Shown one piece after another: positions 12,074 to 56,771 of a DNA stretch of 64,000 bases; within the stretch, counting starts at the first letter, position 1; every line of letters begins with the position of its first letter. Both the position numbers and the translations under genes were made by a program. Source of the stretch: an uncultured Clostridia bacterium (GTDB lineage Bacteria > Bacillota > Clostridia > Oscillospirales > CAG-272). The stretch lies in NCBI GenBank assembly GCA_946407735.1, contig CAMJPL010000009.1, positions 14,847-78,846 of the forward strand. Reading direction: 5' to 3'. The notes beneath the pieces were generated by a model that did no database searches, had not been told where the DNA came from, and saw only the letters and a program-made list of their open reading frames with translations.

Positions 12074-12173
12074 TCCCGATATGTAAGCTCCGTCATGCTC
12101 CGCGCTTTGTAAGATGACAGGGAAACGGCTCGGCCGGGATTTATCCGTGAATGACAAAAAGTTTCATGACCGC

Positions 12174-12202
12174 TATACAAACAGCGCGAAATGTGATATA
12201 AT
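12174..12202 (+). promoter_or_regulatory. candidate promoter with extended -10 (TATACA-N17-TGaTATAAT)
   Basis: TGATATAAT at 12194..12202 and a weak -35 TATACA at 12174..12179, 48 nt upstream of the ATG at 12250. Confidence 0.45.
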
Positions 12203-12249
12203 ATACTCGGATATACCATGATAATGATCCATTCTTAGTGGAGGGCAGC

Positions 12250-20163: not shown

Positions 20164-20486
20164 CATACGCTGCATAAATGTGATAATGCGCTGTAATTCA
20201 CATATCATGGCGCCGTGTTTTTTCACCGGAATGTAATTCGGCGGTTTTCTGTACAGATTGCACAAATTAATCACATGAATTTTGGAAAAAAAAACACTTT
20301 AAATTTACGCCCAAATATGATATAATATTATAGCGAAAAAAACCGGTATTGCGCAGGCAGATCATCTCCAGTATTCAGAATTTATGGTGCGCGGGCCGGA
20401 AAATGATCTTGGAAAGAAACGACAATCCGGCCGCCCGATGGCCCGGGAAGACCGCGTTTTGCACAATATCGAGGAGGATATAATTC

Positions 20487-27164: not shown

Positions 27165-27217
27165 CCTGCGCCGGGGAAACAGCTCCCCGACGGGTGTTTG
27201 TGTGTTCAAGATACGGA

Positions 27218-27296
27218 ATTTATTATCTGGGGGAGGGAAACCCTTCTGAAGAAGGGTTTCCCTCCCCCAGGCCCCCACCTTTCCCAAGACTTTTGC
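27218..27296 (-). repeat. copy A of a ~80-nt G-rich palindromic intergenic element
   Basis: The minus strand reads GCAAAAGTCTTGGGAAAGGTGGGGGCCT + perfect 18-bp hairpin GGGGGAGGGAAACCCTTC-ttca-GAAGGGTTTCCCTCCCCC + AGATAATAAAT. It lies 23 nt after the dapB stop and 53 nt before the MATE ATG. Confidence 0.75.
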
Positions 27297-27319
27297 TGCA
27301 AATTGTATTACCTATGTTA

Positions 27320-28093
27320 TTACAGAGCGCCGTTTATCACGTCGGTCATCGAGTACATCCCGGGCCCTCTGCCCTTCATGAACTCGGCCGCCCTGAGCGC
27401 GCCTTCGGCGAAGACCTCGCGGCTCTCGGCGGTATGCGACAGGCGTATGACCTCCTTCGGCCCGGCGAAGATGACCTCATGCTCGCCGACGATGGTGCCG
27501 CCGCGTATCGAGGATATGCCTATCTCGTTTTTCGGGCGCTTCATCGAGCGGTCGTGTCTGCCGTAAACGTACTCGACGTCTTTTTCCATGCCTTCCTTCG
27601 CGGCGTCGGCGAGCATGAGCGCCGTGCCGCTCGGGGCGTCGAGCTTGTTCCTGTGATGGGCTTCGACGATCTCGATATCGAAATCCTCTCCGAGCGTTTT
27701 CGCCGCCTGTCTCACAAGCATCTGGAGGACGTTTATCCCGAGCGACATATTGCCGGAGCGGAAGACGGCGGTCTTCTCCGACGTCTGCCTGATGCAGTCC
27801 AGCTCGTCTTCGGTATATCCAGTCGTGCAGAGGACGATCGGCAGATGTCTCTCGGCGGCGTAGCCGCAGAGCGCCTTTCCGGCGCTGTGATGCGAGAAAT
27901 CGACTATGACCTCGTCTCCGTCTGGAGTTATCTCGTTTATATCCCGCGCGACAGGATAGTCGGCGCTCTGTCTGCCGTCAAAGCCGACGTCGACGCCGTA
28001 TTTCACTCTGAAAGCGGAACTTTTTTCCTTCGCGGCTTCGGTGACGGCGCGTCCCATGCGGCCGAGGCAGCCGACAAGTATGATGTCCGTCAT
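27320..28093 (-). CDS. dapB: 4-hydroxy-tetrahydrodipicolinate reductase
   Basis: N-terminal VGCLGRMGRAV Rossmann motif and the EAHHRNKLDAPSGTAL signature. Overlaps dapA by 4 nt. Confidence 0.9.
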   Translation of the reverse strand: MTDIILVGCLGRMGRAVTEAAKEKSSAFRVKYGVDVGFDGRQSADYPVARDINEITPDGDEVIVDFSHHSAGKALCGYAAERHLPIVLCTTGYTEDELDCIRQTSEKTAVFRSGNMSLGINVLQMLVRQAAKTLGEDFDIEIVEAHHRNKLDAPSGTALMLADAAKEGMEKDVEYVYGRHDRSMKRPKNEIGISSIRGGTIVGEHEVIFAGPKEVIRLSHTAESREVFAEGALRAAEFMKGRGPGMYSMTDVINGAL

Positions 28094-28980
28094 TTTATGA
28101 GCCCGTGCTTTCTCATTGCGGCGAGCAGTCTTTCCTTATGCTCCGGCTCCATGGCGCAGAGCGGCAGACGCAGCTCGTCCTGACACCAGCCGAGCTCGGC
28201 CATGGCTGTCTTCACCGGGATGGGATTCACCTCGCAGAACAGGGCGTTTATGAGGTCGAGGAGCTTGAGCTGCATTATGGCGGCTTCCTTTGTGCGTCCG
28301 GAAAGGTAGAGCTCGACGATATCGTGCGTCTCCCTCGGCATGACGTTCGACAGCACCGAGATGACTCCGACGCCTCCGAGCGAGAGTATCGGGACGATCT
28401 GGTCGTCGTTGCCGGAGTATATATCGAGCGAATCCCCGCACTCGGCGGCGATCTCGGCTATGGCTGAGATATTGCCGGAGGCTTCCTTGGTGGCGACGAT
28501 GCGGTCGTGCTTTGCGAGCTCCTTATACACGGAGAGCGGGATGTTGCATCCGGTGCGCGACGGGACGTTATAAAGGATGATGGGCTTATCGGTGGCGTCT
28601 TCGATTGCCGAGAAGGACGCGATGAGTCCCTTCGGCGTGGCCTTATTGTAATACGGAGTGACGAGCAGCAGCGCGTCGCAGCCTATCTCGCAGGCGTATT
28701 TCGAGAGCTGTATGGCGTAATCGGTGTCGTTTGAGCCTGTGCCGGCTATGACGGGGACGCGTCCGGCCGTCTTTTCGACGCAGTACTTCATTACGGCCTT
28801 ATGCTCCTCGTCGGAGAGCGTCGAGCCCTCTCCCGTGGTGCCGGCGATGACTATTGCGTCGGTTTTATTGTCTATCTGCCAGTCGATGATCCTGCCGAGG
28901 GATTCATAGTCCGGAATATTGTCCTTGAAGGGTGTGATGATGGCGACCGCTGCGCCGGTGAAGACTCTTTGCTTCTGCAT
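28090..28980 (-). CDS. dapA: 4-hydroxy-tetrahydrodipicolinate synthase
   Basis: ORF trimmed to Met21 (ATG at 28980) after GGAGGAAAAATCAG. GAAVAIITPF, GTTGEGSTLS and YNVPSRTG motifs are present. Confidence 0.9.
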   Translation of the reverse strand: MQKQRVFTGAAVAIITPFKDNIPDYESLGRIIDWQIDNKTDAIVIAGTTGEGSTLSDEEHKAVMKYCVEKTAGRVPVIAGTGSNDTDYAIQLSKYACEIGCDALLLVTPYYNKATPKGLIASFSAIEDATDKPIILYNVPSRTGCNIPLSVYKELAKHDRIVATKEASGNISAIAEIAAECGDSLDIYSGNDDQIVPILSLGGVGVISVLSNVMPRETHDIVELYLSGRTKEAAIMQLKLLDLINALFCEVNPIPVKTAMAELGWCQDELRLPLCAMEPEHKERLLAAMRKHGLIK

Positions 28981-29047
28981 CTGATTTTTCCTCCGCGATG
29001 CCGCTTTTCGGCCCGAGACCGCTTCGGCGGCGTGAAACATTTTTGTT

Positions 29048-29077
29048 AAAAAATAAAAAACCGGTTGAAAACCAGCT
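29048..29077 (-). terminator. leader terminator (expression platform of the lysine riboswitch)
   Basis: The minus strand reads CTGGTT-ttc-AACCGG followed by TTTTTTATTTTTT. The upstream ACATGCATAGCT can pair with the P1 3' strand AGCTATCATGT, giving an antiterminator alternative. Confidence 0.6.
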
Positions 29078-29165
29078 ATGCATGTAATATAATATACTGA
29101 TGCGCGCCGTCAGTCTGCCGCGGCGTTATGCGGCCGTGATCCGCGCAAGCGATATGTCTATACAT

Positions 29166-29461
29166 GATAGCTCTCCACAGCCCTTAGGGCTGTGACAGTC
29201 CGGCGGCTTCCGCCAGCCGGCCCGACATACGGCTTATGCGGCGCCGTACATCTCGGCGAAGCTTCCTCACGCGCCGCGTCCCGCCGCACGGGGTGCGAGA
29301 TACGTTTATTCAAGGGAGGGGGAAAACCCCTTCTGCAGAAGGGGTTTTTCCCCCTCCCTTGACCCACCCCTTTTCCCCAAGACTTTTACTAAAGGGAAAA
29401 GCGGTTTATATCGTTTTTTCTCGCTTCGCGGCGGCGCTGCTAAGCTCCGCGCCTCTATCTC
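29166..29461 (-). promoter_or_regulatory. lysine riboswitch (L-box) in the dapA-dapB leader, with an enlarged P2 arm
   Basis: The minus strand shows GATAGAGGCGCGGAGC (conserved AGAGGCGC 5' core), then TGAGGAAGCTTCGCCGAGA, CCGGCTGG and GGACTGTCACAGCCCTAAGGGCTGTGGAGAGCTATC (conserved ACUGUCA..GGAGAGC 3' core, with P1 closing GATAG/CTATC). Total span is ~296 nt against ~170-190 nt typical. Confidence 0.65.
29304..29389 (-). repeat. copy B of the G-rich palindromic element, embedded in the riboswitch P2 arm
   Basis: The minus strand reads GTAAAAGTCTTGGGGAAAAGGGGTGGGTCAA + GGGAGGGGGAAAAACCCCTTC-tgca-GAAGGGGTTTTCCCCCTCCC + TTGAATAAAC. Confidence 0.75.
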
Positions 29462-29498
29462 TGACGCCCGCCTTCTGCGGCGGCACGCCACAATATTA

Positions 29499-29527
29499 AT
29501 TTTATCACTTACTGCCGAGATTGTCAA
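29499..29527 (-). promoter_or_regulatory. dapA leader promoter TTGACA-N17-TAAAAT
   Basis: The minus strand has TTGACA (29527..29522), a 17-nt spacer and TAAAAT (29504..29499), ~35 nt upstream of the riboswitch 5' end. The -35 overlaps a plus-strand TTGTCA (29521..29526) that could serve queA. Confidence 0.65.
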
Positions 29528-29574: not shown

Positions 29575-30654
29575 ATGACATCATCTTGTGAAATTCCGGG
29601 CGGTGTAATAAAAAACGAGCTGCCGCCGACCGATCTTGTTACCGCCGATTTCAGCTACGATCTGCCTCAGGAGCTCATCGCCCAGACTCCGGCCCAGCCG
29701 CGCGACAGCGCCCGTCTCATGACGGTCGACCGTCGTACCGGAGCGCTTTCTCATCACGTTTTCAGCGAGATCTGCGATTTTCTGCGTCCCGGGGATGTGC
29801 TTGTCATAAACGACACCAAGGTCATCCCGGCGAGGATCTACGGCGTGAAGGATCAGTCTGGGATCGTGATGGAAACGCTGCTGCTGCGCCAGCTCACGCC
29901 CGACACATGGGAGACGATCATGCGTCCGGGACGGCGGGGAAAGGTCGGCGTGACGCTTACATACGGCGACGGCAGGCTGAGAGGCGAGATCGTCGGGACG
30001 AAGGACGACGGGGGAAGGATCATCCGCTTCGACAAGAGCGGCGCCAATCTTTACGCCGCCCTCGACGAGATAGGCACCATGCCGCTTCCTCCGTACATAA
30101 CCGAGAAGCTTGAGGATCAGAGCCAGTACAACACCGTTTACGCCCGTGAGAAGGGCTCGGCGGCCGCTCCGACGGCGGGGCTCCATTTCACGCCCGAGCT
30201 GCTTCGGAAGGTCTCGGACATGGGCGTTGACATCGTGCCGGTGCTGCTGCATGTGGGGCTCGGCACCTTCCGCCCGGTGAAGGCCGAGCATCTGACCGAC
30301 CACGTCATGCACAGCGAGTTCATAACCGTTACCGAGGACGCCGCCCGCCGCATCAACGGCCGCAGAGGTCGTCTCATCTGCGTCGGCACGACCTCCTGCC
30401 GGACTATCGAGTCGGCGGCCGACGATAAGGGCGAGATACACGCCGTCGCCGGGGACACCGGGATATTCATCTACCCCGGCTACCGGTTCAAGGCCATGGA
30501 GGGGCTGATAACGAACTTCCATCTGCCCCAGTCGACGCTCCTGATGCTCGTCTCCGCCTTCTCGAGCCGTGAGATTATGCTATCAGCGTATAAAACGGCG
30601 GTCGATATGAGATACCGCTTCTTCTCCTTCGGCGACGCCATGATGATAACCTGA
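29575..30654 (+). CDS. queA: S-adenosylmethionine:tRNA ribosyltransferase-isomerase
   Basis: DFSYDLPQELIAQTPAQPRDSARLM, GTMPLPPYI and the C-terminal YRFFSFGDAMMI are present. No obvious SD before the ATG. Confidence 0.9.
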   Translation: MTSSCEIPGGVIKNELPPTDLVTADFSYDLPQELIAQTPAQPRDSARLMTVDRRTGALSHHVFSEICDFLRPGDVLVINDTKVIPARIYGVKDQSGIVMETLLLRQLTPDTWETIMRPGRRGKVGVTLTYGDGRLRGEIVGTKDDGGRIIRFDKSGANLYAALDEIGTMPLPPYITEKLEDQSQYNTVYAREKGSAAAPTAGLHFTPELLRKVSDMGVDIVPVLLHVGLGTFRPVKAEHLTDHVMHSEFITVTEDAARRINGRRGRLICVGTTSCRTIESAADDKGEIHAVAGDTGIFIYPGYRFKAMEGLITNFHLPQSTLLMLVSAFSSREIMLSAYKTAVDMRYRFFSFGDAMMIT

Positions 30655-39359: not shown

Positions 39360-39494
39360 ATACCCTCCGGGGCAAGAATGGTTTATATATTATACCGCGC
39401 GGCGGATCATTAATCAACATACCGCCTTGAAATAATAATGGCTTTTTTTGTTAAGGCGGATATGAGATCTTTGCACAAAAAATCTGCTATCCGC

Positions 39495-39523
39495 TTGACA
39501 GTTTTGGTGCGATATGGTATAAT
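39495..39523 (+). promoter_or_regulatory. consensus promoter with extended -10 (TTGACA-N17-TGgTATAAT) for SBP1
   Basis: TTGACA at 39495..39500, a 17-nt spacer ending in TGg, and TATAAT at 39518..39523. The ATG at 39567 follows GAGAGGG. Confidence 0.7.
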
Positions 39524-39566
39524 ATACCCATCCAGAATATTCATATATCTTCGAGAGGGCAGTAAG

Positions 39567-53006: not shown

Positions 53007-55331
53007 TTGGCTAATCTGGTCATAATGGAGTCACCCGCCAAGGCGTCCACGGTAAAGGGCTACCTTGGCTCGTCATATAAGGTAGTTGCGTCGAAGGGGC
53101 ATGTGAGGGATCTCCCGAAATCCACGCTCGGCGTCGACATCGAGAACGGCTTCGAGCCGAAATACATAAATATCAGAGGCAAGGGCGAGCTCATAAAAGA
53201 GCTGCGCAGGGACGCGAAGAACGCCGGCAAGGTCTATCTCATGACGGACCCCGACCGGGAGGGGGAGGCCATCGCCTGGCATCTCGCCAACACCCTCGGC
53301 ATCCCGGTGGATCAGGCCCTTCGCGTCTCGGTGAACGAGATAACGAAGAACAAGGTCAAGGAGGCCGTGAAAAAGCCTCGCCATATCGATATGGACCTTG
53401 TCAACGCGCAGCAGACCCGCCGCATCCTCGACAGGATCGTCGGCTACAAGCTGAGCCCGTATCTCTGGAAGAGCGTAAGATCCGGCCTTTCGGCCGGGCG
53501 CGTGCAGTCGGTCGCTGCGAGGATGATAGTCGACCGCGAGCGCGAGATAAGGGCGTTCGTGCCGGAGGAATACTGGACGATAGACGCCTCGCTGACGGCG
53601 TCGTCCGGCGAGCTCTTCACGGCTAGATTCTGGGGCGAGCTCCCCGAGGGCGGCGCTCCCCGCGCCGTCGAGCTTAAAAACAGCGGCGACGCTGATAAGA
53701 TAGTCGATTTCTGCAGAGGACGCGATTTCACCGTCACGTCGGTGAAGAAGGCCGCCAAGGCGAAGAACCCGGCGCCGCCCTTCACCACCTCCACCCTTCT
53801 CGTCGAGGCGGCGAGAAAGCTCGGCTTCCAGTCCCAGCGCATTATGAAGACGGCGCAGGAGCTGTACGAGGGTATGGATCTCGGCCCCGAGAACGGCGGC
53901 TCGCACGGTCTTATCACCTACATGAGGACCGACTCCACACGCGTCTCCGACGAGGCCGCCGCCGCGGCGAAAGAACTGATCCTCGACAGATACGGCGAGA
54001 AATACTTCCCGTCGTCCCAGCGGCAGTATAAGACCGACGCCGGGGCTCAGGACGCCCATGAGGCGATCCGCCCCTCCGATCCCGCCATACTCCCCGAGGC
54101 GGTCAAGGGACGCCTCACACAGGATCAGTACAGGCTCTACAAGCTCATATGGAGCCGCTTCATAGCCTCCCAGATGTCGTCGGCGATACTCGACACGGTG
54201 TCCGCCGAGATAATGTGCGGCAGCTATATATTCCGCGCCTCCGGCTATACCGTCGGCTTCAAGGGATATATGACCGTCTACGAGGAGAGCGAGCAGGCGG
54301 AGGACGAGGACAGGACGAAGCCCGACAGCGGCGACAAGCCTTCGAAGACGCTCCTTCCCGAGCTTTCGCAGGGCGATAGGCTGAAGGCCGCCGACGTCAT
54401 CCCTCAGCAGCATTTCACCGAGCCGCCTCCGAGATACACCGAGGCCTCGCTGATAAAGCGCTTCAAGGAGCTCGGCATCGGCCGCCCGTCGACATGGACG
54501 CCGATAATCACGACGATAATCTCGCGCGGGTACGTCACCCGCGAGGGCAAATCGCTTCTGCCTACGCCTCTCGGCGAGACGACGACGGAGCTCATGGAGA
54601 AGAATTTCGAGGACGTCGTCGATTACAGGTTCACCGCCAATATGGAGAATGAGCTCGACGACATCGAGAACGGCACCCGCACCATGCAGGACGTTCTCGG
54701 CGCCTTCTACTCCGGCTTCTCCCGCGATCTCGATCAGGCGCAGAAGAATCTCGGCGGGGAAAAGGCCGAGGTCGCGCCCGAGATGACCGATCTCATCTGC
54801 GAGAAGTGCGGGGCGAGGATGATAGTGAAGACCGGCCGATTCGGCCGCTTCGCCGCCTGCCCGAACTACCCGAAATGCCGCAACACCAAGCCCCTCGGCG
54901 ACGACGGAAAGCCCGCCGAGACGGTACCGGCGCCCGACGGCATCAAGTGCGAGGTCTGCGGCTCGCCGATGATCGTAAAGACGGGACGCTGGGGCAGCTT
55001 CTACGCCTGCTCGCGCTATCCCGACTGCAAATACACGAAGAGGATAGAGAAGGAGATCGGCGTCAAATGCCCCGACTGCGGCGGCGAGCTCGTCGTCAGG
55101 CGCGGCAAGAGCAAGCGGGTCTTCTACGGCTGCTCGAACTACCCGACCTGCACCTTCGCGTCGTACGATCTGCCGACGAGCGAGAAATGCCCGGTATGCG
55201 GCGACATGCTGATGGCGAAGCGCGGCAGGAGCGCGAAGCTCGTCTGCCGCAATAAGGACTGCGGCTATTCCCGCCCGGACGACCGTCCCGAGGCGAAGAA
55301 GCCTCAGTCGGGAGACGAATCCGATGAGTGA
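53007..55331 (+). CDS. topA: DNA topoisomerase I
   Basis: TTG start after [15 protein letters not shown], Toprim DPDREGEAI, active-site region YMRTDS, and four C-terminal CxxC zinc ribbons. Confidence 0.95.
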
Positions 55332-56691: not shown

Positions 56692-56771
56692 ATAGAAGTC
56701 TTTGAGGAAAGAGGGGGTATGGGGAGAGAACCCCTTTCCTCAGAAAGGGGTTCTCTCCCCCGCAAATAAAC
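56692..56771 (+). repeat. copy C of the G-rich palindromic element (opposite genomic orientation to A and B, but co-oriented with local transcription)
   Basis: ATAGAAGTCTTTGAGGAAAGAGGGGGTAT + perfect 18-bp hairpin GGGGAGAGAACCCCTTTC-ctca-GAAAGGGGTTCTCTCCCC + CGCAAATAAAC. It lies 18 nt after the trmFO stop and 9 nt before the plsX ATG. Confidence 0.75.

Follow-up and report, generated by a model that had tools for sequence, protein, structure and literature searches.

Lysine riboswitches of the L-box family, such as those of Bacillus subtilis lysC and Thermotoga maritima, are built around a five-helix junction with the junction nucleotides AGAGGCGC, GCCGA, ACUGUCA and GUGGAGAGCUA, in an aptamer that usually measures about 180 nucleotides (nt). 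Their loops L2 and L3 are complementary to each other, and a terminator/antiterminator platform that uses the 3' strand of helix P1 places a lysine-biosynthesis operon under their control. All of these features recur in the leader of the dapA-dapB operon on the 64,000-nt stretch of DNA analysed here (the window; contig CAMJPL010000009.1 of an uncultured Clostridia bacterium), in which the leader is read on the minus strand and to which all coordinates refer unless another locus is named. In contrast to the known L-boxes, the aptamer in this leader measures 294 nt, and the turn between P2a and P2b is a three-way junction with a 130-nt branch. The riboswitch itself is thus of a known family, and the unusual feature is mobile DNA nested within an L-box aptamer.

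Self-folding extras in structured RNAs are not without precedent: the intervening sequences of 23S rRNA helices and the short tandem repeats of cyanobacterial RNase P RNA are tolerated at the tip or side of peripheral helices, and in rRNA such insertions are removed by RNase III. The host RNAs in these cases are stable, whereas the host described here is a riboswitch that acts co-transcriptionally. Our literature search on repeat elements inside riboswitch aptamers found only the BOX/T-box case, the trp leader of Streptococcus pneumoniae, where a BOX element lies between two T-box riboswitches and was regarded as no obstacle to regulation (Croucher et al. 2011, PMC3049150). Both there and in the dapA leader, a small dispersed repeat is co-transcribed within a riboswitch leader and apparently tolerated, but BOX separates two complete riboswitches while the repeat described here lies inside an aptamer, between the strands of P1, P2 and P2a. 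As regards the turn itself, a kink turn (K-turn) at the P2a/P2b kink has been described for the B. subtilis lysine riboswitch and not for that of T. maritima, and the k-junction is a K-turn elaborated to a three-way junction by a third helix (PMC4316175). The dapA leader resembles a k-junction in that an extra helix breaks a loop-positioning turn while the tertiary contact is kept, to judge from complementarity; it differs in that no G-A pairs are recognisable, which leaves membership unsupported, and in that the third helix is a recent mobile insertion rather than a conserved part of the fold.

The riboswitch, its platform and the operon that it precedes comprise the following features.

29499..29527, minus strand: sigma-A-type promoter TTGACA-17-TAAAAT, 11 of 12 matches in the promoter scan, with TG preceding the -10 element
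29166..29459, minus strand: complete lysine riboswitch aptamer from P1 to P1, 294 nt including the insert branch (minimum-energy fold, Rfam and comparison with the relative L006)
29459-29455 with 29170-29166, minus strand: P1, 5' strand GAUAG and 3' strand CUAUC, pair probabilities 0.95-0.97
29427..29450, minus strand: P2 5' strand GCGGAGCUU (29450-29442) and P2a 5' strand GCGC-C-GCCGCG (29437-29427), with an AGCA internal loop between them (fold)
29295..29424, minus strand: insert branch (130 nt), its closing stem being the base helix GCGAGA (29424-29419) / UCUCGC (29300-29295) with probabilities of 0.9-1.0 (fold)
29280..29293, minus strand: P2b/L2 hairpin CCC-GUGCGGC-GGG, 3' of the insert, whose L2 bases 29289-29283 are complementary to L3 (folds)
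29224..29252, minus strand: P3, GAUGUACGGC / GCCGUAUGUC, with loop L3 GCCGCAUAA at 29242-29234 (Rfam alignment)
29176..29220, minus strand: P4 (29220-29200) and P5 (29194-29176) with the conserved ACUGUCA junction (Rfam alignment and fold)
29049..29085, minus strand: expression platform (terminator scan and fold of 29185..29040)
28090..28980, minus strand: dapA, 4-hydroxy-tetrahydrodipicolinate synthase, the first regulated gene (translation; homologues 94% identical with Pfam PF00701)
27320..28093, minus strand: dapB, coding for dihydrodipicolinate reductase and second in the operon (translation; orthologues with DapB_N and DapB_C)

The L-box 5' core GATAGAGGCGCGGAGC begins at 29459, the conserved P3, P4 and P5 modules follow about 190 nt past it, and the terminal GGAGAGCTATC stops at 29166. 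A preliminary description of this leader had reported the promoter (29527..29499), the 5' core and the 3' modules (P3, P4 and closure of P1 by GATAG), all of which we find where it placed them; it had also estimated the aptamer at about 296 nt, which was correct as to the oversize, the distance from P1 to P1 being 294 nt (29459..29166). When the whole window was compared with Rfam, Lysine (RF00168) was the sole family found, with a match at 29160-29287 on the minus strand (46 bits, E = 6.7e-9, gathering score 30) that covers the 3' part only. This alignment omits 59 P2 model positions and adopts a surrogate P1 in which 3/6 pairs are non-standard, indicating that the covariance model is unable to bridge the surplus. 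By contrast, an unconstrained minimum-energy fold of 29465..29160 yields P1, P2 (as GCGGAGCUU/AAGCUUCGC), P2a, P3, P4 and P5 at -164 kcal/mol (z = -11.3), and the conserved consensus residues are present in the Rfam alignments of the window and of L006. Downstream of the aptamer, a terminator stem-loop occupies 29077-29059 and its U tract continues to 29049, in agreement with the platform proposed earlier at 29048..29077, while the 3' strand of the antiterminator (ACAUGCAUAGCU, 29085-29074) pairs with the 3' region of P1 (AGCUAUCAUGU, 29172-29162) in the fold of 29185..29040. This platform is nearly identical across the relatives L001, L003 and L006. On the basis of the Rfam match, the unconstrained fold, the terminator/antiterminator and the presence of dapA and dapB downstream, the riboswitch belongs to the L-box family, RF00168.

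In the predicted folds the branch projects from the turn between P2a and P2b, on its 5' strand, and gives rise to a three-way junction laid out as P2a, two unpaired A, the branch, the CCC-GNGCGGC-GGG hairpin and the 3' strand of P2a. The same three-way plan was obtained for all five variant leaders (the window, L001, L013, L117 and L006). The complementary segments that had been proposed to bracket the element (AGCTT/AAGCT, GCGCCGC/GCGGCGC and GCGAGA/TCTCGC) all form in the fold with probabilities of 0.84-1.0, but the accompanying idea that they stack the element on top of P2 had to be abandoned: the element branches off sideways from the 5' strand, at a point between P2a and P2b, and the L2 hairpin (29293..29280) survives. 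Comparison with L003, whose turn consists of P2a, then ACACAAAGA, then the P2b/L2 hairpin CUCCG-GGUAUG-CGGAG, identifies the small hairpin 3' of the insert as P2b/L2, and it follows from this comparison that the insert occupies the turn's long 5' junction strand, with L2 not replaced and without a coaxial extension of P2. The thermodynamic ensemble contains an expected 44.5 pairs inside the branch versus 1.0 between branch and riboswitch core, and the branch is in this model insulated from the core. With the branch removed, about 164 nt remain between the P1 ends and the L-box fold persists.

The core of the branch is a copy of a repeat that occurs three times in the window.

29310..29387, minus strand: copy B, consisting of the head AAAAGTCTT (29387-29379) and, after a G-rich spacer, a hairpin of about 23 base pairs (bp; 29362-29310) with central TTCTGCAGAA (inverted repeat, pattern and profile matches)
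27227..27294, minus strand: copy A, directly downstream of dapB and co-oriented with transcription (inverted repeat, pattern and profile)
56694..56760, plus strand: copy C, between two plus-strand genes upstream of plsX and co-oriented with transcription (inverted repeat, pattern and profile)

The three copies, with hairpins at 27227-27270 (A), 29310-29362 (B) and 56721-56760 (C), align across about 85 nt including the non-palindromic head AAAAGTCTT. A degenerate pattern matched exactly these three sites in the window versus 0 expected in shuffles, and an nhmmer profile recovered the same three copies. Resemblance of copy B to A and C had been noted before at 29304..29389, and the match is borne out with its core refined to 29387..29310. 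Roughly 50 nt of the branch lie outside this core and are not part of the repeat family; the 5' part is homologous to a small hairpin of L006. Against Rfam, the repeat returned only sub-threshold matches to generic microRNA hairpins. When the region of copy A (27195-27300) was compared with the corresponding region 3' of dapB in the relative L007 (4983-5082), the flanks proved identical and the repeat interior strongly different, while elsewhere dapA is 98.9% identical and the 3' leader from P2b/L2 to the dapA start is identical between the two; from these alignments the repeats appear to turn over or convert much faster than their surroundings.

The dapA leaders of relatives were collected via DapA homologues, close relatives being present in ENA ERZ1029112 and NCBI GCA_017455795.1, and lineages were set by dapA nucleotide identity.

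Clade W (the window, L007, L008, L009, L117 and L118): dapA nucleotide identity to the window of at least 94.7%
Clade X (L001 and L011-L014): dapA 86% identical to the window and at least 98.5% among its members
L006: dapA 81.5% identical to the window in nucleotides, DapA 89% identical
L003: dapA 74% identical to the window in nucleotides, 81% identical in DapA

L003 has a canonical 181-nt aptamer with a two-way turn and no insert (72 bits). L006 carries only 24 nt at the insert site (UAGGAAAAAACGUCGGUUCUUUCC, a small hairpin) in an aptamer of 195 nt, and its leader matches Rfam Lysine over the full length at 83.2 bits with the distal GAUAG serving as P1; an empty site of the kind that the preliminary description had suggested looking for in relatives thus exists in the same riboswitch. 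Most members of clades W and X possess a type-1 insert at the same position that is 84% identical between the clades (dapA, 86%), and the simplest reading of these identities would be one type-1 insertion in the common ancestor of W and X. Two leaders depart from this pattern. L013 (clade X) and L117 (clade W) contain a type-2 branch, 65.5% identical between the two, where shuffles reached at most 53.8%; the insert of L013 belongs to another subfamily of the repeat at the same site, and the L117 copy is decayed (9 bits, E = 8e-4 versus the family profile) in an otherwise intact riboswitch. In addition, the L117 leader (70-372) is recombinant, the promoter and the 5' half (GCGAAGTTTAATAG) being similar to clade X or another donor while the 3' half and dapA are those of clade W, with the breakpoint at or within the insert. 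The two insert alleles and the recombinant leader indicate that the site is polymorphic and has been exchanged between lineages. Nesting of a repeat in the P2 arm, as originally described, is upheld, but a single insertion does not account for the two alleles and recombinant leaders in close relatives. Since the site is empty or holds 24 nt in L003 and L006, sequence comparison identifies an insertion rather than growth in place.

A scan of Joint Genome Institute (JGI) metagenomes for the clade-specific 3' P2 sequence gave no match and hence no further alleles. Clade X also has an extra copy, D, downstream of queA (L011 284-383, L013 1-88, L001 1-77), which is missing from the window and is co-oriented with transcription. 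The L118 contig (NCBI GCA_017455795.1) opens at 1-80 with a fold-back duplicate of the 3' arm of the repeat and its flank, probably an assembly artefact at the palindrome, and such repeats may break or distort metagenome-assembled genomes (MAGs) at the riboswitch.

Conservation of pairing was assessed on an alignment of nine leaders (A2) using 500 shuffles and slid-register controls. Standard pairs made up 93.8% of cells compared to 89.3 ± 0.6% in shuffles (0/500 reached the observed value), and 12 pairs were changed on both sides, a number likewise reached by 0/500 shuffles; slid registers were only 30-46% paired. Within this alignment the P2 and P2a pairs are kept at 100%, the GAUAG/CUAUC pairing of P1 is perfect with an invariant distal GAUAG, P3 has 97.8% of cells paired with five pairs changed on both sides across relatives, and the base helix of the branch is kept with two compensatory pairs. 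L2 and L3 remain complementary in every lineage, and the longest cognate duplexes are listed here.

Clade W: UGCGGCG / CGCCGCA, 7 bp
Clade X: AGCGG / CCGCU, 5 bp
L006: CGCGGCGG / CCGCCGCG, 8 bp
L003: GUAUGC / GCAUAC, 6 bp

At one of the kissing positions the pair is U-A in clade W, A-U in clade X and C-G in L006, and from such complementarity alone we infer an L2-L3 kissing contact. As W and X both carry the type-1 insert, the compensatory differences between them would postdate the insertion, which argues for a working aptamer.

Of the two outcomes that the preliminary description had left side by side, tolerance of the element or loss of the loop-loop contact, we favour tolerance, given that L2/L3 complementarity is kept and covaries and that compensatory changes are found in P3 and in the base helix. 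From sequence comparison and folding models, the switch is likely still functional rather than inactivated, with a probability that we put at roughly 0.7. In this functional state, the riboswitch would control the operon by standard transcription attenuation: lysine binding would hold P1 together, the terminator (29077-29049) would form and transcription would stop, whereas without lysine the 3' strand of P1 would pair with 29085-29074 as the antiterminator. The aptamer is interrupted in the turn between P2a and P2b, on its 5' strand, by the 130-nt branch with its repeat core of about 78 nt, and in the predicted folds the branch pairs with itself and is closed by its 6-bp helix, making the turn a three-way junction. 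The P2b/L2 hairpin just 3' of the branch could still kiss L3, such that the lysine pocket could still assemble. The insert would then be a tolerated passenger at the spot that is the most variable and peripheral of the aptamer and at which an ancestor would already have had a small extra hairpin.

Several points weigh against a functional switch. The turn lacks tandem G-A pairs and a recognisable K-turn, being a three-way junction in the window, L001, L013, L117 and L006, and given such a turn the geometry that brings L2 to L3 is assumed. The G/C-rich L2 (GCGGCGG) could alternatively pair with the 5' strand of P2a (CCGCCGC). About 130 extra nt between the halves of P1 and P2 could favour co-transcriptional misfolding of a kind that equilibrium folding does not see, and a perfect 23-bp duplex would be a likely substrate for a double-strand-specific RNase. 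As to the comparative evidence, no more than four or five independent lineages support the covariation, the contrast with the slid controls is inflated by the origin of the tested structure in the window sequence, and L006 is a natural proxy for in-silico excision of the insert but a different molecule.

An unlikely alternative is that the insertion disabled lysine sensing and locked the leader as a constitutive terminator or as read-through, with the conserved core reflecting short divergence time or a constraint on the opposite strand. The fall in Rfam score from 83 bits in L006 to 46 and 31.5 bits in insert-bearing leaders seems to favour such inactivation, yet it is a modelling effect, as the covariance model cannot span the insert and settles on a false P1 with mismatched pairs. 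Absence of a canonical K-turn and a long spacer that could disturb co-transcriptional folding of the aptamer halves are likewise compatible with a disabled switch, and a conserved promoter-like site on the opposite strand that overlaps the platform (see below) could explain part of the conservation. Against this, all helices are kept in the insert-bearing clades W and X despite a dapA divergence of 14%, with five compensatory P3 pairs and a compensating L2/L3 change, a pattern unexpected for a dead aptamer, and terminator and antiterminator are both intact. Less probable still, although compatible with a functional switch, is that the segment has been co-opted as a processing site at which a double-strand-specific RNase would detach the leader from the mRNA, as a protein-binding hairpin, or as a pause or roadblock tuning the kinetic window. 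Retention of the insert across two species-level clades fits such a role, as do the preservation of the hairpin by compensatory changes in 16/19 pairs over 80 aligned copies and the co-orientation of the repeat with transcription at 4/4 distinct lineage sites (A, B, C and D), the latter being weak statistics. However, the decayed hairpin of L117 in an otherwise intact riboswitch shows that the riboswitch needs no intact hairpin, and L006 and L003 do without the repeat.

Two further alternatives, both highly improbable, concern the origin of the segment and the limits of the aptamer. Were the segment a lineage-specific P2 expansion that evolved in place, as the preliminary description had itself considered, the small extra hairpin of L006 could be taken as a sign that the turn is prone to elaboration in this clade; but the core has counterparts at unrelated intergenic sites of the window and of relatives and, among the matches listed in the scan described below, about 90 copies in other phyla. 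The repeat is moreover absent from L006 and L003, and in L013 a copy of a different subfamily occupies the same site, so that the extra segment is best described as a member of a dispersed repeat family. The least probable reading of all holds that the 128-nt Rfam match (29287..29160), with a minimal P2, is already the complete functional aptamer and that GATAGAGGCGCG upstream of it is an unrelated relic. Although this span counts in the cmscan output as complete over the model (positions 1-182), it comes at the price of the 59 skipped P2 positions and the P1 with 3/6 non-standard pairs, whereas the distal GAUAG pairs perfectly with CUAUC, is invariant in the nine leaders, is used in the 83-bit match of L006 and lies about 35 nt downstream of the promoter found by the scan. 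The 5' fragment alone can also be aligned, at high posterior probability, to model positions 1-23, albeit as a 3'-truncated match with only 7.7 bits (E = 3.1).

We tentatively propose, at somewhat below even odds, that in this L-box clade the P2a/P2b turn recurrently receives or exchanges copies of an undescribed hairpin-type mobile repeat found across phyla of gut and rumen anaerobes, and that lysine sensing is kept because the three-way junction still presents L2 to L3. If true, a ligand-sensing aptamer would here be a naturally occurring stable host of mobile DNA, and the case would point to a peripheral L-box site onto which large cargo can be grafted. The locus would show at which point a complex five-helix aptamer can accommodate 130 nt of strongly folding sequence of foreign origin, and it offers a natural allelic series (no insert, a 24-nt hairpin, two repeat alleles and a decayed copy) for the role of the P2 turn and of L2-L3 in co-transcriptional sensing. 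That such a series exists at one aptamer site and involves an apparently undescribed cross-phylum repeat family raises the interest of the case. There is also a practical implication: covariance-model searches return interrupted riboswitches as short, low-scoring partial matches with a false P1, and similar interrupted riboswitches have probably been missed or mis-delimited.

To describe the repeat beyond the window and its relatives, we scanned a species-representative genome collection with the degenerate pattern, which imposed an invariant head and loop and did not impose the G-rich hairpin; more than 100 loci were among the matches listed. Of 114 pattern matches, with genomic and viral loci taken together, 97 have at least 12 pairs spanning the loop (median 25 bp). 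The hosts among the matches listed include Desulfovibrionaceae (Mailhella, Bilophila, Desulfovibrio and Lawsonia), a Clostridia MAG from sheep rumen, Ruminococcus (among them R. flavefaciens) and a MAG of Planctomycetia, and several copies per MAG were listed in Mailhella, Bilophila and Clostridia RGIG6788. The degenerate pattern was required, as an exact 20-mer from copy B had no match in the genome collection. Comparison of copy B with plasmids and phages by blastn also gave no match, and viral contigs yielded only 9 pattern matches, such that a viral origin is not indicated.

We aligned 80 copies, namely copy B and 79 others from the window, relatives and other genomes. They follow a common plan in which the head AAAAGTCTT, located 15-25 nt upstream of the hairpin, is followed by a purine-rich spacer ending in a G run and by a long G/A-rich hairpin with central TTCNNCAGAA; the flanks diverge immediately outside the aligned unit, and the compensatory changes in 16/19 pairs mentioned above refer to the consensus hairpin. 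With three copies per 64 kb, copy D in clade X only and site B empty in L006, the repeat is by sequence comparison a dispersed family with presence/absence polymorphism between relatives. An Rfam scan of 18 other repeat-bearing loci revealed no riboswitch or structured RNA overlapping the repeat and no Rfam family that covers it, and a literature search found no published description of the family.

Repetitive extragenic palindromic (REP) sequences are imperfect palindromes of 20-40 nt that carry a conserved 5' tetranucleotide of the GTAG type and have a cognate REP-associated tyrosine transposase (RAYT) gene. Judged by its hairpin and head, and with a RAYT gene not looked for, the repeat is not a REP: its median of 25 bp makes the hairpin longer, and the head is AAAAGTCTT with no GTAG. 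Nor does its sequence bear the hallmarks of MITEs (miniature inverted-repeat transposable elements): the 80 aligned copies have no terminal inverted repeats, their 5' end being the non-palindromic head AAAAGTCTT and their 3' end the foot of the hairpin, and no target-site duplication was found at the filled-versus-empty junction of the window and L006, the copy-A site in L002 being too diverged to use. Nonetheless, the repeat resembles REP and bacterial interspersed mosaic elements (BIME) and MITEs such as Correia, ERIC and RUP of transcribed intergenic regions in being short, multi-copy and intergenic, with a stable hairpin and presence/absence polymorphism between strains, and in having a hairpin targeted by other mobile DNA, here an integrase island in the loop at Mailhella loci. 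It differs in consisting of a single long hairpin (median 25 bp) plus the non-palindromic head AAAAGTCTT and in its distribution over several phyla.

At three Mailhella loci (L064, 1-1346 on the minus strand, L055 and L033) the repeat is cut just past the loop, and in L064 a gene for a tyrosine integrase (Arm-DNA-bind_3, Phage_int_M and Phage_integrase) comes after the cut repeat. From this arrangement the repeat hairpin appears to act as the attachment site of an integrase-bearing island. The family looks like an uncharacterised element common to distant gut and rumen anaerobes whose hairpin apparently also serves as an attachment site for an integrase island.

The gene divergent from the operon, at 29575, is queA. 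A promoter-like sequence on the plus strand (TTGAAA-17-TATAAT, 29065-29093, 11/12 matches) lies within the dapA terminator/antiterminator and is aimed antisense across the riboswitch and the repeat toward queA (start 29575); it keeps its 11/12 match in the L001, L003 and L006 leaders. Transcription of queA may run through the L-box in antisense, adding a second constraint on this region. A direct-repeat family with four members in the window (12169-12207, 20293-20331, 29060-29098 and 39490-39528) likewise corresponds to strong promoter-like sites of the form TTGAnA ... TATAATATAC. Elsewhere in the window, at 54848-55151, three tandemly spaced 31-nt repeats (CTTCnnCGnCTGCnCGnnCTAnCC...) within a long open reading frame probably represent repeated cysteine-containing protein modules.

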